Notes: generated by a model not told the origin, from the sequence alone. A DNA stretch of 63,080 bases, filler included, from Jimgerdemannia flammicorona (GCA_003990765.1; 3 parts of 3 records of this genome joined end to end with filler, not necessarily neighbours in it); one strand, 5' to 3'; positions 20,963 to 61,699 are shown, counted from the first letter of the whole stretch. Numbers and translations are program-made.

Positions 20963-21062
20963 NNNNNNNNNNNNNNNNNNNNNNNNNNNNNNNNNNNNNN
21001 NNNNNNTTAATTAATTAANNNNNNNNNNNNNNNNNNNNNNNNNNNNNNNNNNNNNNNNNNNN
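20963..21062. other. Scaffold gap with artificial TTAATTAATTAA linker
   Basis: N-run, 12-mer, N-run totalling 100 bp; same design at 42023-42122. Confidence 0.97.
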
Positions 21063-21082
21063 AAAAAAAAAAAAAAAAAAAA

Positions 21083-29260: not shown

Positions 29261-29271
29261 TGCTCTAATAC

Positions 29272-32200
29272 TTAGAGCTGTAGTTCTTTCCTTTGCTGGA
29301 GAGTGAGTGTTTCCATGTAGTCCTGGAGGGCTTTATGTATATTCTTCAGGGCTTCTTCTTTTTCCCAGGTGGTGTCATGAGTGGAGTAACCCTTCCACTT
29401 GATCAGGAAAAACCGCTTGACTGTTTTGGGGTATTTGTGGACCTTGTGGTCAAGTACTTCCTTAATTTTGAATTCCTCATGATCATTGATCCTAATTAAG
29501 GGTGGTGGTGGAACTGTATGCTCGGGGAATGGATTCTCATAGTAGTTCACTAATTGGCTGATATGGAATACTGGGTGTACCTGGATATTGTCGGGGAGTT
29601 GCAACTTATAGTTGACTTCACTGATTTTTTCCAAGATCTTATATGGTTCAATTCTTCTAGTGCAGAGTTTCTTGGCTGGTTGTTGTGCTAGAGTGTCTGG
29701 GTGGAGATAGTCTGTTCTAAGCATAACTGTGTCACCAATATTGTAGGAGGCTTCTCTTCACTTCAAGTTTGCATACTTGGTCTGGTAGTCTTGTACTTCT
29801 ATGAGAGCATCTCTTGTCATTCGCGTAAGGTCAGAAATTGTCTCAGCCAGATCTTGGGCTACTAGGACTGCTGATTTCACAGTAGTACTTAGGGTCCTTG
29901 GGTGTTGACTATGGTTCAGGAAGAATGGAGTCTTCTTCATAGAGGTTTGCTGACTGTTGTTATAGACAAACTCAGTATGGGCTAGGTACTTGTCCCAATC
30001 ATTTTGCTTATAATAGCAGAAGATACTAAGCATCTGTTTGAGAGTCCTGTTGGTTCACTCAGTTTGACCATCAGTCTGAGGGTAGTAGGCAGTAGAGAAC
30101 TTCAGCTTGATTCCATGGAGAGAGAAGAATACCTTCTAGGAGTTGCTTGTGAACTTGACATCTCAGTCAGATACAATAGTACTAGGCATACCATGTAGTC
30201 TGAATACTTGATTGAGGAAAATCTCAGCAATCTCTGGTACTGTAGCAGTAGTCTTGGTTGGTACAAAATAGGCTTGCTTACTTAGGTGGTTCACGAATAC
30301 CATAATAGCATCCCATCCTGCCTTAGTTTTGAGGAGTTGGACAATGAAGTCCATTGCAATCTGACCCCAGTTGTGGCTTGGGATAGGCAAGGATTACAGG
30401 AGTCCTGCTGGTAGCTTGTTGCCACTTTTGAATCTTTGGCACATCTTGCATGAGGCCATAAAGTCTTTGATGTTCTTAGTCATCTTTGGCCAGTAAAACT
30501 CTCTTGAGAGGAGGTTGTATGTCTGTTCAAAACCAAAGTGTTCTGCTGCAGGAGTGTCATAGAGTTCCTGCATGATCTTGAGTCACAGAGTATCATTGTT
30601 GAGTACAATCACTCTATCATGATCTCTGTAGATAAGTCTATCATGGTAAGTGAATCTCTTGGCCATTTGCCTCAGGGGTTCTGGGACCTCAGCTTCTGGG
30701 TCTTGGCAGTATTGAAGGAATTTCATCAGGGGGCTGTCTTGCTGGTAGCTATCCTTGATCATCTGGGTGAGGTCTCCAATTACCTAACCATGAAGACAAG
30801 TTTATCTTCCATATATCTGGAGAAACCATCAGCCACACAGTTAGTTTTGCCAGGGATATACTTGATTTCCATATCAAAGTTGGCAATGATTTCCATCCAG
30901 TGGGCTTGTCTGTGAGTCAGCATGGGCTGTGTGTAAATATACCACAGAGCATAGTGATCAGTATAGGTCACAAATAATTGCCCTAGGAGGAAATGGCACT
31001 ATTCCTGGAGTACAGTAACAATGGCCAGGAGTTCCTTCTCATGGGTGATATACTGGGTCTCAGCTAGTTTGAGCTTTTGGGAAAGGTAGGCCACTGGGCA
31101 GTCCTCTTGGCTGAGCACTACTCTAATAGCAATGTCAGAGGCATCTGTGGTCAGAGTAAATAATCTGGTAGGGTCAGGTACAATTAGTACTGGGGCCTCA
31201 ATAAGGAGTCTCTTGAGATGGCCCATAACCAGGGTGTATTCAGAGGTCCATTCAGTTTTGATGTTTATGTCTTTGTAGGCCAGGCTGGTCAGTGGGGCTG
31301 CAATAGCAGAGTATCCTTGGATAAACCTTCAGTAATACCCAGCAATACCCAGAAAGTGCTGGAGTAGCTTGAGGGTTGTGGGGATAGGGATATCCTTAAG
31401 GGCAGATACCTTTCAGGGGTCTACATTAATACCTTCAGCAGAGATGATATGTCCTAGATATTCAATCTGGTCCTGATAGAACTTGCACTTGCTCATCTTG
31501 GTATAGAGCTGATATTCTTGCAGAAGGATCAGTACCTGTCTGAGGTGGGTGTAGTGTAGCTCTACTGTCTTACTGTAGATTAGTATATCATCAATATACA
31601 CAAGGACACAGATGTTGAGGAGTGGTCCAAAGATATCATTCATCAGATACTGGAATGTTGCTGGTGCATTGATCAATCCAAAGAGCATGACTCAGAACTG
31701 GTAGTATCCAAACCATGTTTGGAAAGTTGTCTTCTCAATGTCCTTTTCATCAATGAGAATCTGGTGGTAGCCATTTCGCAAGTCTAGTAGGGAAAAGGTC
31801 TTGGCCTTGAAGATTTGGTGTAGCAACTTATCAATCCTAGGCAAGGCATACTAGTTCTTGATGGTGATCTTGTTGAGGGCTCTGTAGTCAATACATATTC
31901 GCAGAGAGCCATCCTTCTTCTTGATAAATAGAATGGGGGCTCCAAATGGAGAGCAGCTGGGTTCAATGTATCCTTGGGCCAGTAGTTTGGTCAACTTATC
32001 CTTGAGGGTCTTAAGTTCAGATTGGGCCAGTTGGTAGATACTCTTGTATGGGAGTTCAGATCCTGGAATAAGATCAATTCCATGTTAGATTTGGTGCTTA
32101 GGCAGAAGTCCTTGGGGGTCTTGAAATATATCTTGGAATTCTTCAAACAGTTCTTGAGCTTCTGTTGGAATTGGGCTACTTGTAGCTCCAGTGACTTCTT

Positions 32201-35200
32201 GTACTGTACAGATGAAGTAGGTGTTTTCCTTTTTTCAAGAGAGTCTCTTCATTTGAATGGTATTGATGATTTCGATTTCTTGGTGGTTAGTACCTTTCTG
32301 GGGTATCAGGGTGATCTTTCTGCCTTCGTGAATCAGGTTCACCTTGTTGGTTCTCCAGTTGATGTCTGGGTTGTACTGGGTCAACCAAGCTTTTCCTAGG
32401 ATGATGTCTTATCTTGAGAGGTCTACAATACTGAAGTCCAACTTCTCTTGATATTTGCCAATCTTAAGCAAGAGATCTTCACAGATCTTGGTCAATAGTA
32501 CAGTTTTTCCATCACCAAAGGTAATACTTCTTTTTTCAGTAGCTGGCCTGCTTCAGGCTCCAATCCTCTTGGTGGTCTTAGTGCTGATGTAGTTTCTAGT
32601 AGCACTGCTATCAAGCAAAACATTGACATTCTGTCTGTGGACTTGGCCTGTGAACTTGATGCAACTGTCCTCCTTCTTGATGGTATTGAGCTCTTTATCT
32701 TCATTGTTGTCCCAATTACTGTCAGTCTCCTTGAAGTCAGTTTCTCTCCATCCTTTACAAGGAGGGTTGTCTTGTTTGGATTCCTCAGTCTGTTGGATTT
32801 GGTATTTCTCGGATTGAATTTTGAAAACTTTGGAGAGGTATGCATGGAATTCACCAATATATTCCATGCAGCACATTCTTATAGAATGAGGGCATCATCC
32901 ACATAGTGCATAACCATCTGCAATTCTCTTATACCAGTTTTCATCATCTTCCTTTATGGTAGTGACCTTTTGACTGGAAGGTTTGTTGGTAGATTCTAAC
33001 CTTTTCTTGCTATAGTCTGTGAGTTTGGGGACTTCTTTAATGGTGAGATCTTGATGGATTTCTTCAATGATTGCTTGGGCAATCCTTTGGTCTGTTTTGA
33101 CTTCAAATGATATATCTCCAAAATTTTGCAAGATGACACAGATTTTGCTAGTAAATTCTTGATCAACTACTCCTCCTCCTAGCCCAATGTTGAACTCTTT
33201 GGCTAGGCTGCTTCACTCAGTAAGGCAGATGTATGTACCTTTGGGAGCTTGCATTGCAATTCCTATTTACACTGTAGCATTGGTACTTGGTGGAATAGTG
33301 AGGTCTTGACTGCTATAGAGGTCATATCCAGCATTAGTTGGATGGGCCTTAGTGGGGATGGTAGCCTTGTACCATAACTTCTGTACTTTGATGACATTCT
33401 CAGGGTTCTTCTTTCCTGGACCTTCTCTAATAATAGTAATGTTCTGGTTACTGGGTTCACCTGTTTTGTTCTTCTTCTCAGGACATCAGAATGAGATATA
33501 TCTTGCCTTTTTGCAGATGAAGCACAATCCTTTTTCATGGAGCTGCTTCTTTTCATTCTTGGTGGGAGGCCTGGGTCCTCTGGGGTTTTGCTAGTTCCTT
33601 TTATCATTCCTTTGATCATATCTTTGATCACTCCTTTGATCATTTCTCCTGGTAGGATTTCTTCTATCTTAGTTATCCTTCTTGTATTTTTGATTTCGTG
33701 GGGCTTGTGTAGCAAGGATTTCATGGGCTCTTCTTTGTACTTGGGCAAAGCACCATGAGTAGTGGGGGCATTCTTGGAAAAGACCTTGTTCCTTGATCTT
33801 CTGGGTGAGCCAGTCTGGTAGGGCTGCAAAAAGGTGGTTGGCTCTAGTACCATTGATGGCAAAGTTGTTCTCCTGGTAGGTAAGTCCAACAGTTTTGAGG
33901 TAGGCATCTATTCTGGTGGCAAAGGTCTCTAGATCCTCTTTACTATTCTTGTGAAACTTCATCTGGGAAAGCTTGTTCTAAGTTTCTTGTATATAGGCCA
34001 CATTTTGGAATTTGGTTAGTAGCAAGGCCTTGAGTTCTGGGCCTGCTTCATAGTCATCCCAACCTGGTCTGTTGTTGGCAGGTACTTGTCTATTGACTTG
34101 AGGGTGGACTTCCCAGGTTACTGGGTGTTGTTCTAAGGTTTGCCAGAATTCAGCTACTGTTCCAGTAAAGAATGTGACTACTGTTTCTACTTGTGCTGCT
34201 GATGTGGCAAATAGTTATTGAAGGGTGCTGTTCTGGTTATTGGTGAGCATTACTATAGGCACTCAGTTGTCATTCCATTGGTTTGCTCAGTAGCCTGTAT
34301 CAACTGTATTGATGAAGTTTTCAATGTTGCTGTTTTTTCCACTGAATGTTGGAATTCACAAGGTCTTAGTTGGCTTGTTCTGTTCAGCAATCTGTCCTAC
34401 TATCCCTGCTAGTACCACTAGCTAGATAGTCAGTGCTGCAATATTAATATTTATTATTGTATTGACTATTGGTGGTGGGCTTGTTTGGGTAGATTCTCCT
34501 GAAAATTGATCTGCTTGGTGGGGTTGTAGTGCTGTATAACTTAGGATTACTTGGTTTCCAGATATCAGATCAAAGAGTCCTGTGAGAGAGAGTAAACCAA
34601 ATCTTTATATAGGTGGCTGAGTTGGTTCTGGGGTCTGATCTTCTTGGCCTGTAGTTCCTTGGTAAATTTCTAGGCCTACTGTTCCTAGTTGGCTATTGTC
34701 AGACTGGTAACCTGTAGAGTCTTCATCTGACTCTCTTCCCTGATGAGATAGTGCATTCTCATACTAGCTAGATCCTTCAAAGAGGATATCAGTCTCTGGC
34801 TGGGTAGATGGGCCTACTTCTTATTCAGCAGTAGGAGATGGTTGGCCTGCTTGCTCATTCTCATACCTAGTTATAGCAGAGGCATAGTTTACAACTAGTC
34901 TGTAGTAGAGGGAGGTCTTGGTAGGGATATGATATCTATCAGAGGCAATCCACTCGGCAGCTGCTTCTCTTATAGTAGGGGGTGTGATATAATCTAGAAA
35001 ATTCTGGATGGCTGTAGCAGTAGATTCTGGGGTCCTAGTAGTTCCAATGTATCCTTAGAGGAGTTCGTAGAACCTATCACAGCTGACAATATTCCTAAGT
35101 CCTGGGTGGTATGTCCTAAAGACCTGGTATAGATCCTTGTAAGCCTGGTCAATTATAAGCTAGTGGGTCCTTGGGTCTGTGGTTTCCTGGTACCATCTGG

Positions 35201-35230
35201 TTCTAATAGCAAGGACTTCTCTAGCTCTGG
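29272..35230 (-). pseudogene. Family B gag-pol with integrase C-terminal chromodomain
   Basis: Chromodomain EFKIKEVLDHK...FLIKWKGYSTHDTTWE; integrase IAMDFIVQL, VSD; RT FGLINAPATFQ, YIDD; RNase H TTDASD; protease LLDSSAT; 5' end approximate. Confidence 0.93.
32985..33400 (-). pseudogene. dut: dUTPase domain of family B, between Zn knuckle and protease
   Basis: NAGYDLYS, SSLA, GGVVDQ, RIAQAII. Confidence 0.9.
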
Positions 35231-38006
35231 TTTGAGGATCTACAGTTAATTTTGGGGGTTACTCCTGTCCAAGGTTGGTCTTGTTCCAACTTCAGGAGTA
35301 TGTTCTTTGGTGCCTTCTTGGCTGGTAATCTACTGCTACCAAGTTGTAATAACTCTCACTTCTACCCCTCTCTTATCCTTTAGATAATTAGGGAAATAGA
35401 CTATTACTTAGAGACTTAATACACAATGTGTACCAAGAAGCCTTCAGTTTGAGAAAGTACTTGCTTATAAGTAAATATAGTGGCAGTGCCTTATCTTTCA
35501 AAGGTCTTTCTCTGTTGCCCTATTTTGAGGGTCTTGTTCTTTGCTGTGCACAGAATGAATTTGCCTTGGAATTCAGGTTCAATAGGTTTACTTAAGTCTT
35601 TGGGGATTTATATACCAGTCTCAGTTCTGGCAGAAGTTAGCTAGGCTTCTGGAGTTTAGTCAGAAACACCAGAGTCATTTAGGTATCATTACTAAGACAA
35701 AGGGGAATGTGTGTGTGTGGGGGAGACTTGATTCTTGTATCAAGGACTGAACTAAAACTGCTTTATTTCAGATGGAAACTGGGCGGTATCTATACAAGTT
35801 GGTCTGCGATTTCTGACTAAGTATAAGTGACTAATTTGGTAACTATAATGAGGTTTGTAATCATGACCTTTGTTAGGTGGTTTTTGGCAAAAATAACTTT
35901 GTGATCAGGACCTCAATTACTAGGCAATGATCAGCTGCTGTGGCAACTATTGCTGCAGTGCCAATTGTTGGAGGTAAGCTGGATATCATTTTCCACATCA
36001 TTTCGCATCATTTGTATCATTCATCATTCATAATTCGTATGTCACACTTCATTCATATGATGACGTCATTGCCACCAGGTCACGTGATCACTTGTCTCAT
36101 CATATCTCATCTGTTCATTCATTCGCATCTCATCTGTTCTATTACAGCTGGAGAGGGTTGAGGTGGGCTTTGAGGAGGCAGGCCCACTGGAGAAGGTACT
36201 GAAAAATAGAGTGGTGGTTGGGGAAGTAGTAGTCTCTATAGTACAATATCTTAGATAAGACCCCAGAGTGGTATAATTACTAGTGAAGGAGGTGTCTATA
36301 GTGATGAAGGTTGAGACTAGGAGAAGGGTAGAGAAGGTGATGGTGGAGTATGGTGATGTAGTGGATATTGACTTTCAGGTATGAGAGGGGACTACAATTA
36401 AGACAGGTGACAGAAGCTGAAGAGAAGGGACTAGCTGCAGAATATGACTTAGACTTGGTATAGGAGGACCTAAATGTGGATTAGTAGTAGATGAGTGCAA
36501 TAAATAATAGTATTTTTTATGAATAGTATAACTAACATTTTCTCTCTAAATGTGAATAGGTTACAGGGTTCTGGGTAGTGTAAGAACATTTTTACTTGTC
36601 TCAAAAAATTGGAGGCTGATCTCTTCTTACTATAGGATGTACCATATAAGAATGTAGATGATTGGATAGAGTGGACTAGAGAATGGGGTGGGGCTACTGC
36701 TTAGTTTGACAAAGTGGTAATTCTGATGAAGAAGAGTAGAGGAGACTTAAGGGAAATCAGGAGCTGGGGTGATCATTTAGTCTGGGGAGAATGGCATCAG
36801 GCAGGGTGGGAATCAGTAAGGGTGGACTTCTGCTATTGCCCTATAGTTAGGGGCAAGAGGATTATATGGATTAGAGAGCTGCTGGAGGAGGGTATTTTCT
36901 TAGAGGAAGGAGTCGATGTTCTTGGTAGTGATTTTAATATGGTTCGAGATCTGTGACTGGATAGATCTGATAGAGGGAGATATACAGGTGGGAGAAGTGG
37001 TGGTCTGAATGCATGGGAGGAGGTGGAGAATCTTAGCTCCTTATGGAATATAAGCAGAACACAGTAGGGTAGGGTCTACACCTATTGGATAAATGGCTTA
37101 GGCATGAAGATTTACTGGATTCTGATGGCTGAATATTGGGGTGCTAATATCTGGAAGACTTTAGAGGTGACATGGTGCCTATGGTCTGATTACTGAGAAC
37201 TGTTAGGGCAGAGGTAGTTTGGGAGGAGTAGAGATAGACCTAGAAATTAGTATCTTAACTCCTTTCTGCTAGCTGAGAAGAGGTTGTGGGACTTATGGGT
37301 GGAGGACATCCAGGCAAAGATTCCTGTCTGGGGGCATGAGGGTCTATCTGTGGGTATCTGTTGGATGAGATTAAAAGAGACCACAAGGGTCTATTGGAGA
37401 GGAGCTGGTAGAGAGGCTGGGAGACAGAGGAGGAAGCATATATAGTATACTTCAAATAGGCTGATGAGATTGCAGATAAAATGGACTAATTTGCTTATTT
37501 CTGATAAGGTGGAGGATTGGAGGTTAGAGTGGGTGAAATTGGAGATAGTGGAACTGCAACAGGTGTTGAGAGAGGAGAAGGAGACTCATATGTGAGGTAT
37601 GGCTGCCAGGCTATAGTGGCAGGGGCTTGAGGAGGAAGAGCAGCCTACTAGGTACCTGTCTAGGCTCCTCAAAGCTAGGAGAGTGTGATATCAGTGGGAT
37701 GGAGTCTTTGGTGCTGAGGGAGATATGGTGTATGGCATGAAACAGATCTTGGAGGTCTTAAAGGAGTGATGGTGGGGTCTGTGGAGTGAGGAAGAAGGGG
37801 GTGCTGATAAAGAGACAATTGGAGATATACTGGAGGAGTGGGAGCTGCTGTAGATAGAGAGACTGGGTGACTTGATCTTATCAGTTCAAGAGGAGGAGAT
37901 CCTGAGAGTCCTTGTGGCAACTAAGCTTGAAATGGTACTAGGGGAGGATGGGTTACCTTGGGATTTCTGGAAGAAGATAACAAAGGTCCTTGGAGTGTTA
38001 GGAGAG

Positions 38007-41000
38007 TGTAATAGAATGAACAGATGGGACATGATGAATGACAAGCGATCACGTGACCCAACGAGTGATGATGTCATCATACGAACGAAGCATGACATAT
38101 GAATTACGAATGACAAATGATGCGAATGATGTAAAATGATGCAGAAAACAATATCCAGCTTATCCCCAATAATCAGTACCGCAGCAACAGTTGCCACAGC
38201 AGCTGATCATTACCTAGTAATTGAGGCCCTGATCACAAAGTTGTTTTTGCCAAAAACTATCTGACAAAGGTCACGATCACAAATCTTATTATAGTTACCA
38301 AATTAGTCACTCATACTTAGTCAGAAATCGCGGACCAACTTGTATAAATACCCCCCAGTTTCCATCCGAAATAAAGCAGTTTTAGTTCAGTTCTTGATAT
38401 AAGAATCAAGCCCCCCCTCCACACACACATTCCCCTGAGTCTTAGTAATAACATCTAAGTGACTCTAGTGTTTCTGACTAAACTCCAGAAGCCTAGCTAA
38501 CTTCTGCCAGAACTGAGACTGGTATATAAATCCCCAAAAACTTAAGTAAACTCATTGAACCTGAATTCCAAGGCGAATTCAGTCTGTGTACAGCAAAGAA
38601 CAAGACCCTCGAAATAGGGCACAAGAGAATGACCTTTGAAAGATAAGGCACTGCCGCTACAACTACTTATAAGTGAGCGATTCCTCAAACTGAAGACTTC
38701 TTGGTACACATTGTGTACTGAGTCCCTAAGTAATAGTCCACTTTCCTAATTATCCTAAGGATAAGAGAGGGGTAGAAGTGAGAGTTATTACAACTTGGTA
38801 GCAGCAGATTACCAGCCAAGAAGGCACCAAAGAACACACTCCTGAAGTTGGAACAAGACCAACCTTAGACAGGAGTAACCCCCAGAACCAACTGTGGATC
38901 TCTAAACCAGATCCAGAGAAGTCCTTGCCATTAGGACCAGGTGGTACTAGGAAACTACAGACCCAAGGACCCATCAGCTTGTAATTGACCAGGCTTACAA
39001 GAATCTATACCAGGCCTTTAGAACATATCACCCAGGACTTAGGAATATTGTTAGCTGCTGTAGGTTCTACAAACTCCTCTGAGGACACATTGGAACCACT
39101 AGGACCCCAGAATCTACTGCTGCAGCCATCAAGGATTTTCTAGATTATATCACACTCCCTGCTGCAAGAGAAGCAGCTGCCAAGTGGATTGCCTCTGACA
39201 GATATCATCATACCCCAATCAAGACCTCCCTCTACTACAGGCTAGTTGTATACTATGCCTCTGCTATAACTAGGTATGAGAACGAGCAAGCAGGCCACCC
39301 ATTCCCTACTGCTGAACAAGGAGCAGGTCCATCTACCCAGCCAGAGACTGATATCCTCTTTGAAGGACCTAGTCAGTACGAGGACACACTATCTTATCAG
39401 GAAAGGGAGTCAGACGAAGACTCTACAGGTTACCAGTCTGATGATAGTCAATAAGGAACAGCAGGCCTAGGAATTTACCAAGGGATCACAGATCAAGAAG
39501 ATCAGACCCCAGAACCAACCCAGCTATCTATACAGAGGTTTGGTTTACCCTCTCTCACAGGACTCTTTGACTTAATATCCAGGAACCAAGTAACTCCAAG
39601 TTATACAGCACCACAACTCCACCAAGCAGAACAATCTTCAGGAGAATCTACCCCAACAGGCCCACCACCAATAGCCAACACAATAGTAGATGTCAACATT
39701 GCAGCACTGACTACCCAGCTAGCAGCACTAGCAGGAATAGTAGGACAGATTGCTGAACAGAACAAACCAACCAAGACTTTGCAAATCCCAACATTCAGTG
39801 GAAAAAACAGTGACATTGAAAACTTCATCAATGCAGTTGATACAGACTACCGAGCAAACCAATGGAATGATAACTGAGTACCTATAGGAATGCTCACCAA
39901 CAACCAGAACAGTACCCTTCAACAGCTGTTTGCCACATCAGCAGCACAAGTAGAAACAGTAGCTACATTCTTCACTGGAACAGTAGCCGAATTCTGGCAA
40001 ACCTTGGAACAACACCCAGTAACCTGGGAAGCCCACCCTCAAGTCAATGGACAAGTACCCGGCAACAATAGACCAGATTGGGATGACTATGAAGCAGGCC
40101 CAGGACTCAAGGCCTTGCTACTGACCAAATTCCAAAATATGGCCTACATACAAAAAACTTGGAACAAACTATCCCAGATGAAGTTCCACAAGAATGATGA
40201 AGAGGATCTAGAGACCTTTGCCACCAGAATGGATGCCTATCTCAAAACTGTTGGACTTACTTATCAGGAGAACAATTTGGCCATCAATGGTATCAGAGCT
40301 AACCATCTCTTTGCAGCTCTACCAGACTGGCTCACCCAGAAGATCAAGGAACAAGGTCTTCCCCAAGGATGTCCCCACTACTCATGGTGCTTTGCCTAAG
40401 TACAAAGAAGAGCCCGTGAAATCCTTGCTGTACAAGCTCCACGAAATCAAGAACACAAGAAGGATAACCAAGATAGAAGAAATCCTACCAGGAGAAATGA
40501 TCAAAGAAATGACCAAAGATATGATCAAAGGAACCAGCAAAACCCCAGAGGACCCAGACCCCCCACTGAGGATGAAAAGAGGCAGCTCTGTGAAAAGGGA
40601 TTGTGCTTTATCTGCAAGAAGGCAGGGCACATCTCAGTCAAATGCCCTGAGAAGAGAAACAGAACAGGTGAACCCAGTAACCAGAACATTACTATTATTG
40701 GAGAAGGCCCAGGAAAGAAGAACCCCAAGAATGTCATCAAAGTACAGAAGATATGGTACAAGACCTCACCATCCCACCAAGTACCAATGCTACAGTGCAA
40801 ACAGGAATTGCAATGCAAGCTCCCAGAGGTACATACATCCACCTTGCTGAGCAAAGTAGCCTAGCCAAAGAGTTCAACATTGGGCTAGGAGGAGGAGTAG
40901 TTGACCAAGGATTTACTGGTAAAATCTGTGTTATCTTGCGAAATTTTGGAGACACATCATTTGAAGTCAAAGCAGGCCAAAGAATTGCCCAAGCAATCAT

Positions 41001-42022
41001 TGAGGAAATTCATCAAGATCTCACCATTGAAGAAGTCCCTGAACTCTCCCAGACAAATTGTGGCAAGAAAGGGTTTGGATCTATCAACAAACCTCCCAGT
41101 CAAAGGGTCACTATCATGAAGGAAGATGATGAAAACTGGTACAAGAGAATTGCAGATGGTTATGCACCATGTGGATGATGCCCTCATTCTATTTGAATGT
41201 ACTGCATGGAACATGTTGGTGAATACCATGCATGCCTCTCCAAAGTTTTCAAAATTCAATCCGAGAAATGCCAAGCTCAACAGACTGAGGAACCCAAACA
41301 AGACAACCCTCCTTGTGAAGGATGGGGAGAAACTGACTTCGAGAAGACTGACAGCAATTGGGACAACAATGAGGATGAAGAGCTCAATACCATCAAGAAG
41401 GAGGACAGTTGCATCAAGTTCACAGGCCAAGTCCACAGATAAAATGTCAATGTCTTGCTTGATAGTGGTGCTACTAGAAACTATATCAGCACCAAGACTG
41501 CCAAGAGGATTGGAGCCCGAAGCAGACCAACTACTGAGAAAAGAAGTGTCACCTTTGGTGATGGAAAGACTGCACCATTGACCAAGATCTGTGAAGACCT
41601 TTTGCTCAAGATTGGCAAATATCAAGAGAAGTTGGACTTCAGTATTGTAGATCTCCCAGGACAAGATATTATCTTAGGAAAAGCCTGGTTGACCCAGCAC
41701 AACTCAGACATCAACTGGAGAACCAACAAGGTTAACCTGACCCATGAAGGCAGAAAGATCACCCTGACACCCCAGGAAGATATCAACCACCAAGAAATCG
41801 AAATCATCTCTGCCATTCAAATGAAGAGACTCTCTTGAAAAAAGGGAAACACCTACTTCATCTGTACAGTACAAGAAGTCACTGAAGCCACAAGTAGCCC
41901 AATTCCAACAGAAGCTCAAGAACTGTTTGAAGAATTCCAAGATGTATTCCAAGATCCTCAAGGACTTCCACCCAAGCGCCAAATCTAACATGGAATTGAT
42001 CTTATTCTAGGATCTGAACCTC
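38007..42022 (+). mobile_element. Second family B chromovirus (D): 5' LTR, gag, dUTPase, protease; cut by the gap
   Basis: LTR 38007-38792 is the reverse complement of LTR B; PBS TGGTAGCAGCA 38796-38806; CFICKKAGHISVKC; GGVVDQGFTG, KKGFGS; LDSGAT. Confidence 0.95.
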
Positions 42023-42122
42023 NNNNNNNNNNNNNNNNNNNNNNNNNNNNNNNNNNNNNNNNNNNNTTAATTAATTAANNNNNNNNNNNNNNNNNNNNNN
42101 NNNNNNNNNNNNNNNNNNNNNN
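42023..42122. other. Scaffold gap with artificial TTAATTAATTAA linker
   Basis: N-run, 12-mer, N-run totalling 100 bp. Confidence 0.97.
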
Positions 42123-42648
42123 AGGGGGGCCACCCCCCCCTATCCCTTCTTGATAAAAGACCACTTTATCAAACATTATTACCACCTGTCCACCACTCTG
42201 CATGCAGATCCCTTCCACCAGATGGTGACATCACCCACCTTGTGGTCCCCATCCAACCCATCACCCCATCAGCAGATCTGCTACTAACTCCTCCCATCTC
42301 AACAACTTCTCCTGTATCCCTATCTGCTATCTCTCCTCAAAGACAAAGAGCCAATGTCCTGCCAACCCCACCCACACTGCTACAACCCACCCTACAGTAA
42401 GCCACCTATTGCCAATACCCCCCCCACAAGCCGAGATTCCAGATCCTCCCAATGACCCCGCTCTCCATCTGGTCTCCTTTCAACCCCTAGCTGGTCCCCA
42501 ACAGCTATCCAAAAGTCCCCCAGCACCTCACACTCCCCCAGCCAATGTTCCGGCATTTGTACAAATCTCCCAACCTGCCCAATATTATAACACTCCTCAC
42601 AATCCAGCTGACCACCATCCACCAGATGCTCAGCACAGAAGTCGGCAT
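42123..42648 (-). mobile_element. 5'-truncated LINE (ORF2 C-terminus)
   Basis: CEECYN...PEHWLGEC matches 3569-3802; joins family A gag at GGCAT. Confidence 0.88.
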
Positions 42649-43445
42649 CATTTCCCACATAGTTCACAGCTGTGAATACTGCTCTTACAGGGCCTCATAG
42701 GCTAAAGGGTATAAGGGCTACTTGCTGTACTGCTGTCAGGGTCCTTACAGCAGCATACTGCTTGAAATCATCAATGAAGATGATGATTGATTCATCTGAG
42801 ATATATCCACAGAATACTGGTGGTCTTATATCTATCTTGTCTAGGTATTGGGACTCAGTTTATATGATTGTTCGGGTAGTGGCAGTTGTTCATTGTTTAG
42901 CTTAAAAGTGAGGTATTCATCTTGAATTATCAGCCAATGGGCACCAAGTTGTAATGTAGCAGATGCTTACTCTTGAAAGTACATCAGATTTCTGTATCTT
43001 GAAAACTTGACTGTTCTGACTCTTCGCAGGGTCTCTTGAAGTTGCAGGAGAGAGTGGGTGAGTTCGAAGTGTATCTGCCTGCAGGCTTACTAGTTCCTTT
43101 GCTATCTCTTTGCTTTGAACTATTTCGATCTGAGGTTTATTCACTCTAAGATACTGGGTTATTTATACAAGTTTTGCTAGCTATAAGGTGGCTAAGTTAT
43201 GAGTCATTTTCTGTAAGTCAGTAAGTGTAAATTCTCTATATCTGCCAAAATCTTTACAATCGTAAAGGATTTACATCTGTAGAATTTCTATAGTTGCCAA
43301 AGTTTCTATGAATGTTAAAGTTTCTATACTTGTAAAATATGACTGTTATTTGTAAGGCTAAGCTATATTGAGAATTAGATTCAGGTACTATGATCAAATG
43401 TCTAATTCCCCTGATTCATGTTACTAATTCGGATTGACCATCACA
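42644..43445 (-). mobile_element. Family A-related Gypsy (A2): 5' LTR (42950-43445), PBS and start of gag
   Basis: Matches 18211-18790; PBS TGGTGCCCATTGGC; LTR TGTAAT...TCACA followed by ATAT. Confidence 0.9.
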
Positions 43446-52930: not shown

Positions 52931-53382
52931 AATATATATATATACATATATTGTCATATAGTGGTCACTGAGTCCTTTAAATATACCAGATTCTTTTCAA
53001 GGTATATCTTTTAGACTAACTCAAGTTTGTTATAAGCAAGTTCTTATTGGAGTGCCTTCCTAAGGTCTTATAGTCCTCAAAATTCTTATCTTTAAACTGT
53101 CTTGTTATCTCTTAGATTGCTTACAAGGAAGTATGTATATTGCACTAAAAGGAACTAAATAGACTGACTTTATTTCAGAGAAAATAAGAAGAGTATTTAT
53201 ACAAAATATAATTCAATGGTTGCTAAGATATAAAGCTAAATATAAATTCCAATAACTAAAATAAAATGCCAGGACAGGAAAAACTGCTAAGTTTCAGAGT
53301 TGGTACTAATGGTTATACAGGTTCAGGATGCTGGTATAATTTTGGTATTATATCAGAATGTCAGTACTGGTATAACTCAGTA

Positions 53383-54240
53383 TTATATCAGAATGTTGGT
53401 GCTGGCATAACTCAGTATAATTAAAGAACTTTGGAGCAGAATGTTCAAGACCATAGGGGCTTTATTCTTATTATCACTAAAGGAGATGAGATCTACAAAT
53501 TTATTATCATCACATTGATCATACATTTTGCATATATTGTGTGTGATGATATTATCACCAATGACATCATCATGTTCAGCAGTAGCAGGAAGGAGGTCTG
53601 GGGCTCTCCAGTTTATAAGGTTCTCTTCCACAAAATAGGGGACAAATGTGGAGTCTTAGAGAAGTCTAACCTGGATACTTGGGCCTTAGAATACTGAGAT
53701 CAATCTTTATAGGAATTGGTCTGGGTTATCCTGAAGGATAGGATGCCAGAAGTCTTCTACTTTATCACTATTGAGGGTAATAGTAGACTGGACTTCTGTA
53801 GCTACTCTGGTTTCTAGTACATTGATACAGTAGGATGATAGGTCTCTGAAATCTGAGACTCTAACATATTCCAAGTTGGAGATTGACTATAGTGTATGCC
53901 TGAAGATCTGATAGATCTTCTTAGCTATTCTTGCTTTATATATGTCCATGGAAGTAGCATCTTGTAACTCTTGGGGGCTGGCCTGTGGGAACTCCTGGCA
54001 GAGGAGGTTTCCTATTTCATACTTTTGCTATATTTGAAGACATTTAGTAGCAATGGTGATCCTTATTTCCATTTCATGGCAATAGAGGATATAATGATAA
54101 GGGTCACTAGTACCCAGGTTGACACTAGGAGTCCTTCTTGAGCAGGTCCTCATGGCTCTTCTGATGTCTTGGAACATCTTTTCTTTAACTGAGACACCTT
54201 GGTAGTTCCTTGACCTTGAGGTTTGGCAAGCAGCAGGCAT
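53383..54240 (-). pseudogene. Accessory ORF inside U3 of the 3' LTR of family C (~285 codons with internal stops)
   Basis: ORFs 54028-54240 and 53383-53631 are in one frame; the middle reads YEIGNLLCQEFP...RIAKKIYQIF...VRVSDF. Confidence 0.75.
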
Positions 54241-54795
54241 TTCATTTGTGGTAAGTCTTTGAGCTATTTTGGAATTAGTGGGTCTTGTTGGTTGCTGCTA
54301 CTGTAGTTCCTTGATTTTTTTTTTATATTTCTCAAGATATCTAAACTGTGGTCACAATAACTCACAGTTGGTTATCATTACTCATCTTATATACTATATG
54401 ATCTTCTTGTGCTCCAATCTGGTGGCTTGTAAGAAAAGGCTGTCTTTTGTACTAATGTCATAATTCTGGGATCACCATTATATCTTCCTCCTGAATAAGG
54501 ATCTTCTTGAGCATCCTTATTCATTGGTCCAGTCCTGAAAAATTTGCTAATTCCATAACCTCTGGCAAGGGGTTGAAAAGTGGTGTTTATGGACTGGTGT
54601 CTTCTCTATGTATTTTGGTATGATAGTGAAGAGTCATTCCCTTCATATAGAGCAAGGGCCTGATTCTGATCTTGATCAATCAGTTGATAGTTTGAACTCC
54701 TCTGGCTTTGAAAGTCTCATAGATGAGTAGTTGCTAGTGCCATATATCTTAGAGAATGGTCCAGACAGATAGTCTGCTAGTCATGGAACATGCTG

Positions 54796-57700
54796 TTATG
54801 ATTTGCAGACTAGAATCTCATGGGTGGTCATCACATTTTGCTTCTCTTATATAGGTTCATAGTACTTCTTGAGTCTGTTCCTGTGTACCATGGTAGGCAG
54901 TATGGTCTCTGAGATTTTTCTAAGCTAAAAGGTAGTTCTCTTGATATCTTACACATAGAAGGATCCTTCCCACTTGGGCTCCAGTTTTTATGACTACAAG
55001 ACTTCTACCATATTTCAATATAGTAGGACCTTTTCTCCAATTTGGATGGGTTCTAGGGTCTTGTAATTCTTTTCTGCATTCTTCCTTATCAATACTTGTG
55101 ACTTGATAATATAATCTTCAGCCTTCTTTCTGATTTGGTGTAGTCTCCAGATTTCTACATCAATCTATCTCCAAGTTAGGTCTAGATTTGTGGCTGAGGT
55201 TCCATCAGAATCTTCTTCTCCAAAGAGCAGTTCTCTTGGGATAAAGTGTGTGCTCTGTGACCATATGTCTCATAGGACAGAGAGGGCAGTTGGGAGATAA
55301 TTATCCCAATTCTCATATGTCTCTGAGATCTTCACCAGGATGTTCTTAAGGATCTTGTTGGTTCTCTCTGTCTGTCTATTTTCTTGAGAGTGGTATGTAG
55401 TAATCTTGATGTACTGAATCTTATATTTCTGATACATTATCTCATGGAATCCATTGACGAATTCTGTGCCATGGTCTGTTGGATTTGCTTCAGTATCTTG
55501 TAGTGACAGATAATTTCTTGGTACAAGAAGTCAGCTATAGAGAGGACATTGGCTTCTTGTAATGCTCCTACTTCTATCCATTTGGTAAAGAGGTCTATAA
55601 TATCTATAATATAGCAGTTTCCTGATAGTGTTACTGATAGTGGACCAATGATATCTATTGCAATGTGGTGGAAGAGAATAGGCTCAATTCTTAATGACCC
55701 AGATATCTGGCCTTACTGATCTTGTTTCTGTTTTTGGCACTTATCACACCCTTTGACAAATTGGCACAGGTCTTCTTCTATCTTGGACTACCACATAGTT
55801 CTTCTTGCCTTGTTGTATATATTGGTTCCTCCTAGATGTCCTTGCTTGTATACTTCCTTCATTACTTGATACTTCTTGTATTCAGATATTACTAGCTTTT
55901 CTCCTTTTCTGAGTGTAGTGTTGTCTAGTTCAAACTGTTTCCAAGTCTGGTTGATAATGGTAATTGTCCAGGGTTCAAAGTGGTTGGGCATCTTTTACTG
56001 CTCAAGATAGCTGATTAATCTATAGTATAACTCCTTATTTATGTTGAGTAATATTAATAGGGGTATTTTAGGGTATCCTTGAGAGTGCATCAGCATTGGT
56101 ATTGATTCTTCCTGAGTGGTGCTTGATAGTACAGTCATACTCTTGCAGCCTATAGATCTATCTGACATATATTTCTTTGGGGTTTAGAGTGTGGAATAGC
56201 CAGGCAAGAGCAGAATGATCTGTTTGAATAGTGAAGTATTTCCTGGCTAGGTAGTAGTGGAACTTGTCTACTGCTCAAACTACTGCTAAGCATTCAAGCT
56301 TATATGACTCATAGTTCTGTTCTACTCCATGGATACCTTGGCTTGCATAGGAGATAACATATTCATGTCCATCTTTCTTCTGAGCTAGGACTGCTCTAAG
56401 TCCTATAGTACTCACATCTGTCTGCAGGATGAATTCTAGATTCCAATCTGGTCTTCTGAGAATAGGTGCTTGGGTCAACCTGATCTTGAGTTCATTGAAG
56501 GTTTCTTGGTGTTCCTTGGTCCATTCGAATTTGGTTTCCTTCTTCAGTAGCTCATAGATAGGTACTGCAATATTAGAGTATCCTTTGATGAATCTTCTAT
56601 AATAACTGGCCAGTCTAAGGAAGGCATGAACTTCTGTGGTCATTCTGGATCTCAGGTAGACTACAATAGCTTCAATCTTCATGGGGTCTGTATGGATTCT
56701 AGTCTGGTTGATGAGGTGTCCTAGGTAGGTGATTTCTTGAGCTGCAAACTTGCATTTCTTGGGCTTGATGTAAAGGCCATACTCCTTGAGCTTCTTGAGA
56801 GCTAGCTGTATGTAATTGATATGTTCCCATATAGTGTTACTGAAGATGATCACATTATCAATATAGACAAAGAGCCATTTTCCAATCTTGTTACTGAAGA
56901 CTCTATTTATCATTCGCTGAAAACTTGCTGTGGCATTGCACATTTCAAATAGCATTTGTAGGTAGATATAGGTGGCATCAGGTGTGATGAAAGCTGATTT
57001 CTCACTGGTATCTTGAGTGAGACCAATCTGATGGAAGCCTGAGAACAGATCCAAGGTGGTATAGTATTTGGCTTTGTTTCCAAGAGTAGTAAGGATTTCT
57101 TGAATATTTGGCAAGAGCTGCCTATCCTTTTTGATGATGGCATTGAGCTTCCTGTAGTCAATGTAGAGTCTTGGTATAAACTCTCCAGGCTTGCTTCCTT
57201 TCTTTGGAGTGAGGACAATGAGTAAAACCCAGGGACTGATAGCTTGCTTGATAATTTCAGCTTCTTTCATTTCCTTGAGTTCTGCTCACAGCCATTCTCT
57301 ATAGGCAGGTGGTATGGGTCTGGCTTTCTGATAAATGGGTTTGGTATCACCAGTGTCAACTTCATAGTAGTACTTGGGTTCTTGATTGTGGATATCTCTG
57401 AAGTCTGTAGCAAGTACTCCTTCATTCTGGTACAGGATCTTGAGAAGTTATTCTTTCAGGGAAAAGTTTTCTCCAATAGTATATGTGTACTTGTTCTGGT
57501 TCTTATCTTTCTTGTGTTCAAGTTCAGTGATCTTAGTGGTAGTATTTGCTCCTCTTCCAGTAGATCCAAAGCCTTGTTCTCCTCTCTTGGTCTTGATGAG
57601 CAGCAATCTTGAGTTTCTTGATTTTGTGAATCAACATCTAGCCAATTCTGTCATGCTTCTTGACTTTGAATGGGGTAGTGGGGTTGTGATTCCTAACTAT

Positions 57701-60040
57701 GAGGAAGATCTCACCAGTATAATCAGGGTCAATTACTCCTCCTTCAACTGAGATTTTACTTTTGGCTAGACTGCTCCTGGTCTTGATAATTCCAGCATAG
57801 TTCTCTGACAGCTTGACTCCAATTCCAGTACCAAGTAGGGTAGTGGTCTGTGGTTTAAGGATAGCATCTTGAATGCTGGCAAGGTCCATTCCTATGACTC
57901 CTTCAGTCTTATATTCTGGGATCTTGGCTTCAGGGTGGAACTTCTTGACTTTGAGAGTGATATCTGGTTCTTGGTCCTCCTCATTACTGTTAGCTTGAAG
58001 CTCTGGGGGCTGGTCATCTTTGGCTTTCCTTTTTGCTTTGGCAGCTTCTTACTCATGTTTCTGTTGGTGGATTTTCCTGACTTCACTGATACAGGACCAG
58101 TAGTCATTCAGGTGTTCAGAGCAGTACATCCTAGTACCATGGGGGCATCTTTCTTAAGGGGTATAGCTATCAATGATCTTGTTGTACCACTGCTCATCTG
58201 TGAGCTTGGGTGTCTTATTCTTATTCTTGTTCACCAAGTATATGAAGACCTCTGTGTCTTCTTCATCTCCTTCCTCTATATCTGATAGGACTTCTTTGTG
58301 GACATTGATAGAGATTTGTACCTTTCTTCCTCTATAGTTGATCTGCATCTTCTGGACATTGAGGTCAATGATGGCCTTGGCCTTGTGAAGCCATTGGTTG
58401 CCAATGAGGATGTCATAGTTGGTAGTGCTTGTAACAATCATGTCTACTGAGATGGTAGCTCCTCCTATCTTAATAGAGACTTCTTGGATTTTGTCAAGGG
58501 GAGTAGCTCATGTACTATCTGCTGTAACATAGACCATCTTGGTGGACTCTTCAATATCTCAGCCTAGGCAGTCAATTGTCTTCTTGCTTATGAGATATTC
58601 TCTAGCACCAGTATCAATGATAGCATCAAAGATATAGTTTTTGATCTGACATAGGGTATAGGTTGATGTCTTGCACTGGTCTTCAGATTCTTTACCTGAG
58701 TTTTTGGATTCTTTCTGTACATTATGAGCTTCTACAATCTTGTACTCTTAATTCTTGGCAGTAGTTGCAAGTCCTACTCTCAACTGCTGTCTGAAGGCAG
58801 GGACTTCGGCTAGCTGTCTAAAAGTAGCATTGACCTTCTATTCCTTAAGGTCCTTATAGATATCATACTAGTGGATCTTAGTCTTGGGTAGCTTCTGTTC
58901 CTTCTTGCTTTTACTTTCTCCTGAGACTGGAGTAGTACCTTCAATGATTTGGCAGACAGCTTCATCTAACTCTATGTCTTGATCAATCTCCTCAGGTTGA
59001 GTCTTGCTTTGAATAGTGATAGCTGGAGTCTTCTTTGATCTTCCAACTGGCTTACTGTTGCTCTTCTTGTCATAGGGCTTGGACCAGATTCTGGTACCTT
59101 CAGTAGCAGGGTAGAATTCAAGCTCCTCATAGTATTCTTTATCATCAGTATCACCAATCTCCTTGATGACTACTGTATTAGTTTATTCTCTAGTTCTACT
59201 AGTATTGCTTGATTGGGCTTTGTGTCTTGTTTTGGTCATGCAATTTTTTGTATAGTGGCCTTCTTCTCTACATCTGAAGTATGTGATATTGTGTTCTTCT
59301 GTAGCAGCTGCAAATCTCTGCACTGGTCTCCTGTTGGTGCTTTAGACTTCTCTAACATCATTAAGGTGTGCAGTCATCTCGGTGAACTGCTTGACAAGTT
59401 CCTCCACTGGATCAGCTTTGGCTATCTTGGGAGTAGGTAGGGATGGTTGTCTGTTTACAACTGTAGCATATATGATACTAGTTGGTTTTGGTGGCTCCAT
59501 CTTGATACCAGTTATTTTCTCCATTAAGTATTCAGCAGGGTATCTGGCAGTCCAATATCTCTATACAAAGACCACTTTCTGATCAAGGGTCAGTGCAGCT
59601 AGAATTGATCAGATTGCTAGAGCAATTTTAGGATGAACTCCTTTAAGAAAGGTTGAATCCACTATTTGTTCTTTGAGGACATCATCATAGCCAGCCAAGA
59701 CAATCTAGTAGTAGATTTGGGTATAGAATGAGTTGGGATCTTTACTGAGTCTCTGGCAGATAGTGTTGAGTTGATCCTTGAGAGCTTGCTTGATCTCTTC
59801 AGTATAGTATATTGTTCTGAAGAAGGCCTTCATATTGGCAAGTTTGATTGCACCATTATTAGCAATAGTGGCTGCATTGAACTTGTCTCTGGCAGGTCCT
59901 CTGAGGCTGACTGGTAGAAGGGCCAATTGTACATCTACACCAAGGGCTTGTATGGTAGCAAATTGTTCAAAGTCTTCAATGAAGGTCAGGATTGACTCTT
60001 CAGTAGTATATCTATAGAATATGAGGGGACACATTTCCAT
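54796..60040 (-). pseudogene. Family C gag-pol
   Basis: MEMCPLIF gag start similar to family A; protease IIDTGA; RT/RH ORF 56275-57270 (LDLFSGFHQI, YIDN, LQTDVS); integrase WEGSF, HRNRLKKY. Confidence 0.93.
57555..57965 (-). pseudogene. dut: dUTPase domain of family C, between protease and RT
   Basis: GMDL, KTRSSLA, GGVIDPDYTGEI, KRGEQGFGSTG. Confidence 0.92.
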
Positions 60041-60534
60041 CTTGTCTTAAATTCTTGCAGGGGTGACTCTTATAGTCAGGGTAGTTGTTGTGGGGGTTGT
60101 TCATTTTTCAGTTTAAAAGTGAGAGATTTATCTTGAATCACCAGCCAATATGCACCAAGTTGTCACATAGTAGTTGCTGAGTCCTTCAAATATGCCAGAT
60201 TCTCTTCAAGGTGTATCTCTTAGACTAACTCAAGTTTGTTATAAGTAAGTTCTTATTGGAGTACCTTCCCAAGGTCTTATAGTCCTCAAACTTTTTATTT
60301 TTAAACTGTCTTGTTATCTCTTAGATTGCTTGCAAGGAAGTGTGTATATTGTTCTAAAAGGAACTGAATGGATTGACTTTATTTCAAAGGAAATAAGAGG
60401 AGTATTTATATAAAATATAATTCAATAGTTGCTAAGATATAAAGCTAAATATAAATTCTAATAACTAAAATAAAATGCTAGGACAGGAAAAACTGCTAAG
60501 TTCTAGGGTCAGCACTGATAGTTGTACAGGTTCA

Positions 60535-60630
60535 GGATACTGGTATAATTTCAGTATTACATCAGAATACCAGTGCTGGCATAACTCAGTGTTATATCAG
60601 AATGCCAGTGCTGGCATAACTCAGTATAAC
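60535..60630. repeat. 35-bp tandem repeat (about 2.5 copies) in U3 of LTR C, upstream of the TATA box; also at 53330-53420
   Basis: GTGCTGGCATAACTCAGTGTTATATCAGAATGCCA unit. Confidence 0.8.
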
Positions 60631-61447
60631 CGAAGAACTTTAGAGCAGAATGTTCAAGACCATAGGGGCTTTATCCTCATCATCACTAAAGGAGATGAGA
60701 TCTGTAAATTCATCATCATCACATTGGTCATGCGTTTTGCATATGTTGTATGGGATGATATCATTACCAATGATGTCATCACATTCAGTAATGGCAGGAA
60801 GGAGGTCTGGGGCTCTCCAGTCTATGAGGTTCTCTTTTACAAAATAGAGGACAAATGTGGAGTCTTGGAGAGGTCTAATCTGAATACTTAGGCCTTAGAA
60901 TACTGAGATCAATCTTTATAGGAATTGGTCTGGGTTGTTCTGAAAGATAGGATGCCAGAAGTCTTCTACTTCATCACTATTGAGAGTGATAGTAGACTGG
61001 GCTTCTGTAGCTACCCTGGTTTCTAGTACATTAATACAGCAGGATGACAGGTCTCTGAAATCTGAGACTCTAATATACTTCAAGTTGGGGATTGACCATG
61101 GTGCATGCCTGAAGATCTGATGGATCTTCTTAGCTATTCTTGCTTCATATATGTTCATGGGAGTGGTATCTTGTAAATCTTGTGGGCTGGCCTGTGGGAA
61201 CTCCCAGGAGAAGGTTTCCTATTTCATACTCCTGCCACATTTGAAGGCATTCAGTAGCAATAGTGATCCTTGTTTCCATTTCATGGCAGTAGAGAATATA
61301 ATGATAAGGGTCACTAGTACCCAGGTTGATACTAGGAGTCCTTCTTGAGCAGATCCTTATGGCTCTTCTGATGTCTTGGAATATTCTTTCTTCAACTGAG
61401 ATATTTTGGTGGTTTCTTGACCTTGAGGTTTGGTGAGCAGCAGGCAT
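60625..61447 (-). pseudogene. Second copy of the U3 accessory ORF in the 5' LTR of family C (frameshift near 61205)
   Basis: ORFs 61145-61447 and 60916-61158 match the 3' LTR copy; lower end approximate. Confidence 0.75.
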
Positions 61448-61699
61448 TTCATTTGTGGTAAGTCTTTGAGCTATTTTGGAATTGGTGGGTCTTGTTGATT
61501 GCTGCTACTGTGGTTCCTTGATCCTTCTTTTATATTTCTCAAGATATCTGAACTATGGTCACAATGACTCACAGTTGGTCATTATTGCTCATCTTATATA
61601 CCATATGATCTTTTTGTGTTCCAATCTGGTAACTTGTAAGAAAAGAATATCTCTTGTGCTGATGTCATCATTCTGGGGTCATTATTATAATATATAGAG

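Follow-up and report, generated by a model that had tools for sequence, protein, structure and literature searches.

An orphan accessory gene family was found both in the usual place after pol and fully inside the LTR of related retroelements, with signs of module exchange between them. It was recognized in a 63,080-nucleotide stretch (the window, by which we mean the whole stretch of DNA that was analysed) occupied by dense degenerate retroelements on the minus strand, and its products form an orphan protein family that occurs in at least three Ty3/Gypsy lineages bearing a dUTPase. In elements A and B of the window, and in a metagenome contig, L001, the gene is placed between integrase and PPT, whereas in element C it is inside the LTR (Table 1). 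Our explanation is that the window holds dead copies of a real gene that may have been captured into U3, may have its own promoter and may act as a regulator, and we regard this account, taken as a whole, as probably correct.

Table 1. Positions in the window of the elements, accessory ORFs and candidate signals discussed in the text
Feature	Position	Strand	Basis or remark
C 3' LTR, 1532 bp	52951-54482	-	89.0% identity to 60160-61689; PPT adjoining upstream, 5-bp TSD downstream
C 5' LTR, 1530 bp	60160-61689	-	PBS after, 5-bp TSD before
C PBS	60140-60159	-	Nearly identical to A PBS
C PPT	54483-54496	-	14-nt stretch TATTCAGGAGGAAG common to A
C degenerate gag-pol	54863-60046	-	Pfam, ORF pieces, RT-RH identity to A
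C gag piece	59705-60046	-	
C protease	58157-58507	-	
C dUTPase	57641-58048	-	Pfam 2.3e-19
C RT-RNase H	56278-57285	-	Pfam RVT_1 7.8e-25, RT_RNaseH_2 2e-24
C integrase	about 54863-55994	-	
C non-coding tail, integrase end to PPT	54497-54862	-	Stops in 3/3 frames
Accessory ORF copy, C 3' LTR	53428-54240	-	271 codons, single frame, profile match i-E 3.5e-108
In-frame stops in C 3' copy	54028-54030, 53887-53889, 53707-53709, 53686-53688, 53656-53658	-	
Accessory ORF copy, C 5' LTR	60640-61447	-	Stop 60640-60642; broken
35-nt tandem repeat, 2.1 copies	53345-53418; 5' LTR copy 60551-60627	-	Directly 3' of C ORF
TATAAA, C 3' LTR	54322-54327	-	Candidate ORF promoter; 87 nt 5' of ATG, LTR nt 156
TATAAA, C 5' LTR	61529-61534	-	-87 from ATG
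TATAAATA then AATAAA, C LTR	53169-53201; 5' LTR 60378-60410	-	LTR nt 1282 and 1309 in the 3' LTR (nt 1280-1309 over both copies)
A 3' LTR, 467 bp	12273-12739	-	91.2% identity to 5' LTR; 5-bp TSD
A 5' LTR, 468 bp	18520-18987	-	
A PPT	about 12740-12753	-	
A accessory ORF, 153 codons	12778-13236	-	Profile match 3.1e-70; between pol stop and PPT
TATAAA, A	13317-13322	-	86 nt 5' of ATG, within integrase codons
Element B	27449-36146	-	Chromovirus with dUTPase
B 3' LTR, 802 bp	27449-28250	-	90.0% identity to 35345-36146; 5-bp TSD, PBS, PPT
B 5' LTR	35345-36146	-	
B PPT	28251-28263	-	B ORF ends here
B C-type accessory ORF remnant	28262-28625	-	C profile i-E 1.7e-10 at 28458-28625 (six-frame scan)
TATAAA, B	28692-28697	-	72 nt 5' of ATG
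B integrase C-terminus and chromodomain	29275-29757	-	Pfam SH3_Tf2-1 1.8e-19, Chromo 1.3e-10

The accessory gene in the LTRs of element C

Element C has the features of a Ty3/Gypsy element, with paired LTRs, a TSD, a PBS, a PPT and the order PR-RT-RH-IN; its direct repeats are accompanied by a 5-bp duplication, a PBS and a PPT and are therefore true LTRs. A chromodomain was recognized neither in C nor in A, where pol stops, by reading, ~20 codons past the SH3/GPY module. The original prediction had placed an ORF of ~285 codons wholly inside both 1.53-kb LTRs of C. The placement was borne out by the LTR identity, TSD, PBS, PPT and profile matches, and the frame was right, but the length was not: the true ORF has 271 codons, occupies nucleotides 243-1058 of the 1532-bp LTR in sense orientation and finishes at 53428 in the 3' LTR and with the stop 60640-60642 in the 5' LTR. 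The longer estimate arose because the 3' copy, in which the normal stop position is read through as far as 53383, reads on into the 35-nt tandem repeat. The LTR position is known from one full C element, the other C-type genes being proteins or contigs of <1.7 kb. Between the two C LTRs there are 166 differing positions, of which 159 are transitions, and one 2-nt indel; CpG decay was considered as the source of this divergence and rejected, as possible CpG sites account for just 19 of the 159 transitions.

Both C copies in the window are dead, and their parent gene is real. The 3' copy has in-frame stops at codons 71, 118, 178, 185 and 195 and is 66% identical to the intact 271-aa protein P0003; the 5' copy is broken by a single 2-nt deletion near 61207 and by two in-frame stops, 60916-60918 and 60895-60897, which correspond to the stops at codons 178 and 185 in the 3' LTR. 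A profile of intact relatives matched 53434-54237 (3.5e-108) in the first and 60643-61212 (9.4e-79) and 61208-61447 (2.5e-27) in the second. The two stops common to the copies both stand in a favoured hypermutation context. As these stops are shared, the C parent may already have been broken, in which case the gene would not be needed in cis; parallel hypermutation hits are another possible source of them.

Intact relatives came from several searches. A 177-codon part of the C ORF, with X at the stops, was searched against 5.8 billion proteins and gave three relatives among 14 candidates (P0002, P0003 and P0004, 70-80% identity), of which P0003 is an intact full-length C-type protein of 271 aa. 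An exhaustive HMMER search of 1.84 billion representatives gave four proteins, two of them distant, P0016 (41%) and P0017 (34%, 342 aa), and contig L001 was found to carry an intact C-type relative of 291 codons. The full-length forms P0003 (271 aa), L001 (291 aa) and P0017 (342 aa) all start with M-P and have 20 invariant alignment columns. For the open frame of L001, the per-frame probability by chance is about 4e-6. Of 4360 candidates from a profile search of the protein database, only nine were C-type proteins; as the A type is beyond the reach of the word index used, the search is uninformative on A-C homology. Intact conserved relatives together with the shuffle test indicate a conserved gene of which the window copies are dead. 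An LTR frame that is open merely by chance, in non-coding U3, would suit the broken state of both window copies, but this reading is almost certainly wrong in view of intact relatives that are 42-54% identical to one another with the same start and motifs, and of an L001 frame length that was reached in 0 of 5000 shuffles.

Related sequence words were present in six sequencing runs, as a small share of each, and five of these were soil metagenomes (presumed DNA), the sixth being a run from an organism; no RNA run was among those listed. In four of the runs the contigs were short and related at 80-99%, with depth in all 30 bins. LTR-to-LTR joints in four sequencing runs reflected mapping ambiguity, and there were no usable splice-like joints. 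Relatives were not found in the viral contigs or genome contigs searched. L001 was too diverged from the window copies for dS.

Position of the gene and origin of the LTR-borne copy

Element A had been predicted to carry an ORF of ~165 codons between integrase and PPT. The location was correct, whereas the length was found to be 153 codons, and its LTRs, predicted at ~468 bp, measured 467 and 468 bp. The ATG of the A ORF overlaps the final pol codons, its terminal stop is at 12775-12777, and it has one internal stop (12985-12987); it shows 80% identity to P0005, an intact protein of 153 aa. When it was used in the search of 5.8 billion proteins, 11 of 15 candidates had E <= 0.1, with 59-80% identity to the window copy.

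Within the window alone, a tblastx comparison of A with C gave a weak match of 27 residues at E 0.004. Profile alignment of the two ORFs by hhalign, with 11 A-type and either 6 or 7 C-type sequences, gave alignments of 99-100 columns with 27% identity and P values of 3.1e-4 and 2.9e-4; the score was 32.9 compared with 14.7 for a reversed profile, and none of 200 column shuffles exceeded 23.7. The C profile scored 16.0 bits on the intact A protein P0005, a score that none of 16,000 shuffled decoys reached; one decoy in 16,000 did so for each of P0006 and P0008, and P0010 was intermediate (8.0 bits; 19 of 16,000). The other four of the eight A-type proteins tested (P0012, P0011, P0007 and P0014) scored much lower, their scores being reached by between 250 and 10,958 of 16,000 shuffles. 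Conversely, the A profile scored 10.1 bits on P0003, reached by one of 10,000 decoys. The match of motifs between A and C that had been predicted is thus beyond chance, for the N-terminal parts of the proteins. In a joint alignment the A protein, of 153 aa, lines up with the N-terminal ~135-165 residues of the longer C type (271-342 aa), and it is very likely, judging from these alignments, that the two are homologous over about 100-135 residues. The alternative that they are unrelated, and have the motifs QEY, AK(K/R)IH and DF in common by chance or convergence, is improbable. It would accord with the low identity (just 27-28%), with an hhalign probability of 39-40% and with the weaker A members P0007 and P0014, which score no better than shuffles; it has to contend with the hhalign P value of 3e-4 and its 0/200 column shuffles, with two hmmsearch tests (0/16,000 and 1/10,000 decoys) and with 99-100 collinear columns. 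The A-C homology is also aided by the same strand and the same post-pol place in related elements.

The two-family account of the original prediction was incomplete, in that element B, a chromovirus, also carries an internal remnant of the C type. In this remnant an internal deletion has brought together the N-terminal 54 codons and the C-terminal ~68 codons, which are 54% and 39% identical to the L001 ORF, and its ATG is separated from the integrase C-terminus by a 650-nt spacer. The upstream part of L001 aligns with the B spacer (z 4.4), and in both B and L001 the stop codon abuts a purine tract that is followed by TGTAAT, which in B is the start of the LTR repeat. As the gene is internal in A, B and L001 and LTR-borne just in C, the LTR position is derived. 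The tail of C between integrase and PPT was tried as a relic of an A-type ORF and rejected, since it matched neither ORF profile; it also had no similarity to the B spacer (z -0.4).

The identities of pol and of the ORF are incongruent. In RT-RNase H, C is 62% identical to A and 36.5% identical to B of the window. The C ORF is 45% identical to that of L001 over 260 aa and 42% identical to P0017, which stand in for B in this comparison as the B ORF is mostly deleted, and 28% identical to that of A over 135 aa; A had been named as the partner of the C ORF, and the B/L001 type proved to be much closer. That the C pol is nearest to A but the C ORF nearest to the B type suggests capture of a cassette into U3. 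A rate shift in the shortened gene of A would equally give this incongruence.

The LTRs themselves bear on how such a capture could have occurred. As predicted, A and C share a nearly identical PBS and the 14-nt PPT TATTCAGGAGGAAG, the A copy of which extends 2 nt into the LTR repeat by blastn bounds, and they also share the first ~22 nt and the last ~40 nt of the LTR; because PPT and LTR termini are common to both, a simple shift of the priming site or PPT does not explain the difference between them. The A LTR could be aligned with the final 471 nt of the C LTR (z 4.9, 0/300 shuffles) and, weakly, with the first 471 nt (z 2.9, 3/300 shuffles), but not with the middle blocks (z <1); for its own first 240 nt there was no counterpart in those final 471 nt (z -0.2, 0.6). 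C aligns with L001 from about 95 nt 5' of the ATG, and the likeness stops near the C-type stop. From this pattern the C LTR resembles an A-like LTR into whose U3 about 1 kb has been added.

We propose, with about an even chance of being right, that a B-type gene was taken up into the U3 of an A-like element. The piece acquired would have run from ~95 nt 5' of the ATG through about the last conserved codons, the capturing element would have kept its own PPT and LTR ends, and the next cycle would then have placed a copy of the U3 cassette in each LTR. A different origin, by shift or duplication of the LTR boundary, is possible, although we consider it doubtful. Here an ancestor with the order IN-ORF-PPT-LTR would have begun to prime its plus strand at a site upstream of the ORF, or gained a second PPT and LTR start there, so that the entire ORF-PPT-LTR stretch turned into a new LTR. 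Such an event would be in keeping with the ORF lying directly 5' of the PPT in all relatives, and with a stretch 3' of the C ORF of 471 nt, near the 468 nt of the A LTR and aligned with it; yet downstream of the C ORF neither a purine tract or relic PPT nor a clear relic of an LTR start was seen, the first 240 nt of the A LTR are unmatched there, the C PPT and LTR start are the same as those of A, and the C ORF is nearer to the B type than the C pol is. Whichever way the C ORF came to lie inside the LTR, reverse transcription copies it into both LTRs.

Candidate expression signals and the encoded protein

A TATAAA lies 72-87 nt 5' of the ATG in each of the four lineages examined, at -80 in L001 and at the positions listed in Table 1 for A, B and C. 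Exactly one was present in each of five upstream stretches of 200 nt, from four lineages, with a background of 0.55 per kb per strand, and the C integrase is without a TATAAA at the place that matches that of A. The recurrence of TATAAA at -72 to -87 in four lineages points to a promoter belonging to the gene, and we suggest tentatively, at somewhat less than an even chance, that the accessory gene may have its own TATA promoter. Given AT-rich DNA and related lineages, the four TATAAA matches do not count as four independent events. The TATAAA of A sits inside integrase codons, which counts against an own promoter.

Downstream of the C ORF, TATAAATA is followed at a distance of 18 nt by AATAAA, and the A LTR has the same pair, at nt 254 and 280 of 468. 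We read TATAAATA-AATAAA as a candidate element promoter and poly(A) module. With this module 3' of the C ORF, the ORF would lie in U3, and the predicted U3 placement is sound as an inference given that the module is common to A. In A and B, an mRNA from an own promoter would end at the poly(A) site of the 3' LTR; in C, each LTR, a solo LTR included, would form a full unit of TATA, ORF and AATAAA.

Retroviral env and accessory genes are expressed via spliced subgenomic RNA. One explanation that dispenses with an own promoter is that the gene is expressed in this way from the LTR or, in A, by termination-reinitiation after pol. The A ATG that overlaps the last pol codons would allow for this, as would an AG 20-25 nt 5' of the ATG in C and L001, but in C the ORF begins about 620 nt past the pol stop, beyond a tail with stops in all frames, and the TATAAA would go unexplained in four of four lineages; such expression is conceivable but rather unlikely. 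A further alternative is that the TATAAA at LTR nt 156, which is present in both C LTRs, is the element promoter, and that the ORF is the first ORF of the genomic RNA in a long R/U5 leader. This is considerably less probable, because A, with an LTR that lacks the ORF, has the TATAAATA-AATAAA pair and the pair of C falls in the part aligned with A, and because most transcripts would then terminate ahead of gag, at an AATAAA about 1150 nt from the cap in the 5' LTR.

The protein had been predicted to be uncharacterised and, for want of a TM segment, not env-like, and both points held. The highest 19-residue Kyte-Doolittle mean was 0.19-0.74 in four of four intact proteins, so that none has a TM segment and they are not env-like. 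Pfam gave no family at E<=10 for five of five intact proteins and only noise (E>=0.16) for the accessory ORF pieces of the window; a match to GDSL esterase or DEDDy exonuclease was likewise absent from Pfam. A PDB profile search gave no chain at E<=10 for the C type, and for the A type a single asparaginase match (E 0.046) was set aside as chance. There was no likeness to fusion glycoproteins, judged by Pfam with the five proteins and by PDB with the C-type profile, and no confident match to a described retroelement domain. In the ESM Atlas, the best score for P0003 (0.83) was at chance level, and that for P0005 (0.95) was to unnamed small helical clusters only. AlphaFold2 models were mainly helical and of low confidence, with pLDDT 39.9 from 6 sequences and 46.8 from 15.

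With such poor structure models, a guess at function has to rest on composition. Residues 1-60 of P0003 have a net charge of +8 and residues 121-270 of -25, and the tail has the motifs DL-I-x-F and a conserved P-x-V-L-N-F. The protein is therefore inferred to be soluble, with a predicted basic helical N-terminal part and an acidic tail bearing conserved hydrophobic motifs. By analogy, it could serve as a nuclear regulator or adaptor, with activation of the element's transcription as the likeliest role, although this assignment is speculative. Equally conjectural is the fuller proposal that the C LTR is a self-contained gene for a trans-acting nuclear regulator, and that its cassette was swapped between a chromovirus and a chromodomain-less Gypsy element.

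Each insertion doubles a gene that lies in the LTR, and such a gene would survive in solo LTRs. With a promoter of its own, should it have one, it would spread with LTRs as an autonomous gene. If the LTR is indeed a self-contained source of a regulator, solo LTRs would keep making the protein and supply the family in trans, and they would offer a ready-made gene for host domestication.

Comparison with known systems

Genes inside U3 are known from few complex retroviruses. The Sag protein of MMTV, a vertebrate retrovirus, is a type II membrane glycoprotein encoded by a U3 ORF that is present in both LTRs. As with MMTV sag, the C gene is a sense ORF inside the LTR and occurs in both LTRs; the accessory protein differs from Sag in being without a TM segment and without a Pfam match at E<=10, and its hosts differ from MMTV in being env-less Gypsy retrotransposons with relatives that carry the gene outside the LTR. 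Lentiviral nef, likewise a 3' accessory gene, overlaps U3 in part and the PPT as well. Unlike nef, to which it has no similarity, the entire C ORF would lie within U3 together with its putative promoter. The MMTV sequence in question has been described as the ORF region of the 3' LTR (PMC2118998, partial text). Literature phrase searching for an ORF in a retrotransposon LTR led to MMTV only, which is weak evidence of absence.

The accessory gene is also like foamy virus tas/bet, in that it is a 3'-proximal accessory gene with a candidate second promoter (TATAAA) upstream, and its acidic C-terminal half may be set beside foamy virus Tas by analogy. The foamy virus internal promoter lies in env. 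In the elements described here the TATAAA is in spacer, integrase codons or U3, and there is no sequence similarity to the foamy virus proteins. Tas acts on LTR and internal promoters (PMC8670036, PMC13220597, partial texts).

A parallel in position is seen with the bdelloid ORF3, the plant aORFs and the fungal 'add. ORF', which are extra ORFs between pol and the 3' LTR. To our knowledge, extra ORFs of LTR retrotransposons are common and almost none has a known role. Extra-ORF types are family-specific yet common to distant retroelement lineages, as is the case here. The accessory protein is unlike the described ORF3 types, as it is neither env-like or TM, nor a GDSL esterase, nor a DEDDy exonuclease, and the C gene is unlike the described extra ORFs in being inside the LTR; in the partial text of a review of plant aORFs (PMC7264820) the wording 'in/within/inside the LTR' has no occurrence. 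Fungal Gypsy elements have been drawn with an 'add. ORF' whose function is given as unknown (PMC2864245, Figure 3 legend, partial text), and in the bdelloid elements Vesta, Juno and TelKA, ORF3 types are shared between lineages and a dUTPase is found between PR and RT (PMC5408684, partial text). The occurrence of one orphan gene in both positions within related elements makes the step from internal gene to LTR gene directly open to study, and the incongruence between pol and ORF adds a case of module exchange in Gypsy elements that may be compared with the bdelloid ORF3s (PMC5408684, partial text).

Substitutions between paired LTRs

The LTR pairs of the three Ty3/Gypsy elements in the window, A, C and the chromovirus B, differ almost entirely by transitions: these account for 159 of the 166 differences within the C pair, for 38 of 40 within the A pair and for 75 of 80 within the B pair. 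A CpA/TpG context holds 174 of the 272 LTR-pair transitions from A, B and C, against a background of 37%. CpG observed/expected across the window is 0.13, and at sites that read A or T in the window, related metagenome contigs mostly show G or C. From these base counts, RIP-like or deamination hypermutation looks like the source of the LTR substitution pattern in all three elements.

Tail motifs and upstream ATG of the accessory ORF

The acidic tail, comprising the C-terminal halves of the database relatives P0003 and P0017 and of the product of the intact ORF on metagenome contig L001, contains a short motif of the type DL-I-x-F, which occurs one to three times. Close to the end of these proteins is a conserved P-x-V-L-N-F, which forms the C-terminus in the C type. 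Judged by sequence, both tail motifs look like candidate short linear binding motifs. C alone has an additional ATG, out of frame with the accessory ORF and 5 nt upstream of its start (54245-54247 and 61452-61454); in the 3' LTR copy, the one examined, this ATG starts a 31-codon frame that overlaps the accessory ORF.

Further copies, LINE-like elements and dUTPase domains

A second B-type copy is inverted relative to the first and lies head to head with it (32054-36123 versus 38010-42019, 88.5-90.5% identity). An inverted 3'-end fragment of a C-type LTR opens the window (1-154, 89.7-93.3%), and a fragment made up of 5' LTR and leader of the A type is also present (42644-43191, 90-93%).

The window also holds two LINE-like copies, which belong to different records and are 16.27 kb apart only as counted along the joined stretch. 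The stretch surrounding the first is GC-rich (0.47-0.52) with a strongly negative GC skew (-0.4 to -0.5). At each of the two joins between records (20963-21062 and 42023-42122), where repeat copies end, the filler shows up as two runs of 44 N with 12 bases in between.

Additional features located in the window
Feature	Position	Strand	Support
Additional B LTR	38010-38792		
Non-LTR (LINE-like) retrotransposon	4496-6957	minus	Pfam RVT_1 3.4e-20, Exo_endo_phos 1.9e-05
Second LINE-like copy	about 21082-24881		74-81% alike to 4496-6957 copy
dUTPase, family C	57641-58048		Pfam 2.3e-19
dUTPase, family A	16037-16591		Pfam 9.7e-15
dUTPase, family B	40681-41175		Pfam 9.3e-21

By Pfam, a dUTPase domain sits between protease and RT in all three Gypsy families of the window, and family B additionally has a chromodomain. 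According to passages in two published accounts, retrotransposons rarely carry dUTPase (PMC5408684, PMC2864245).
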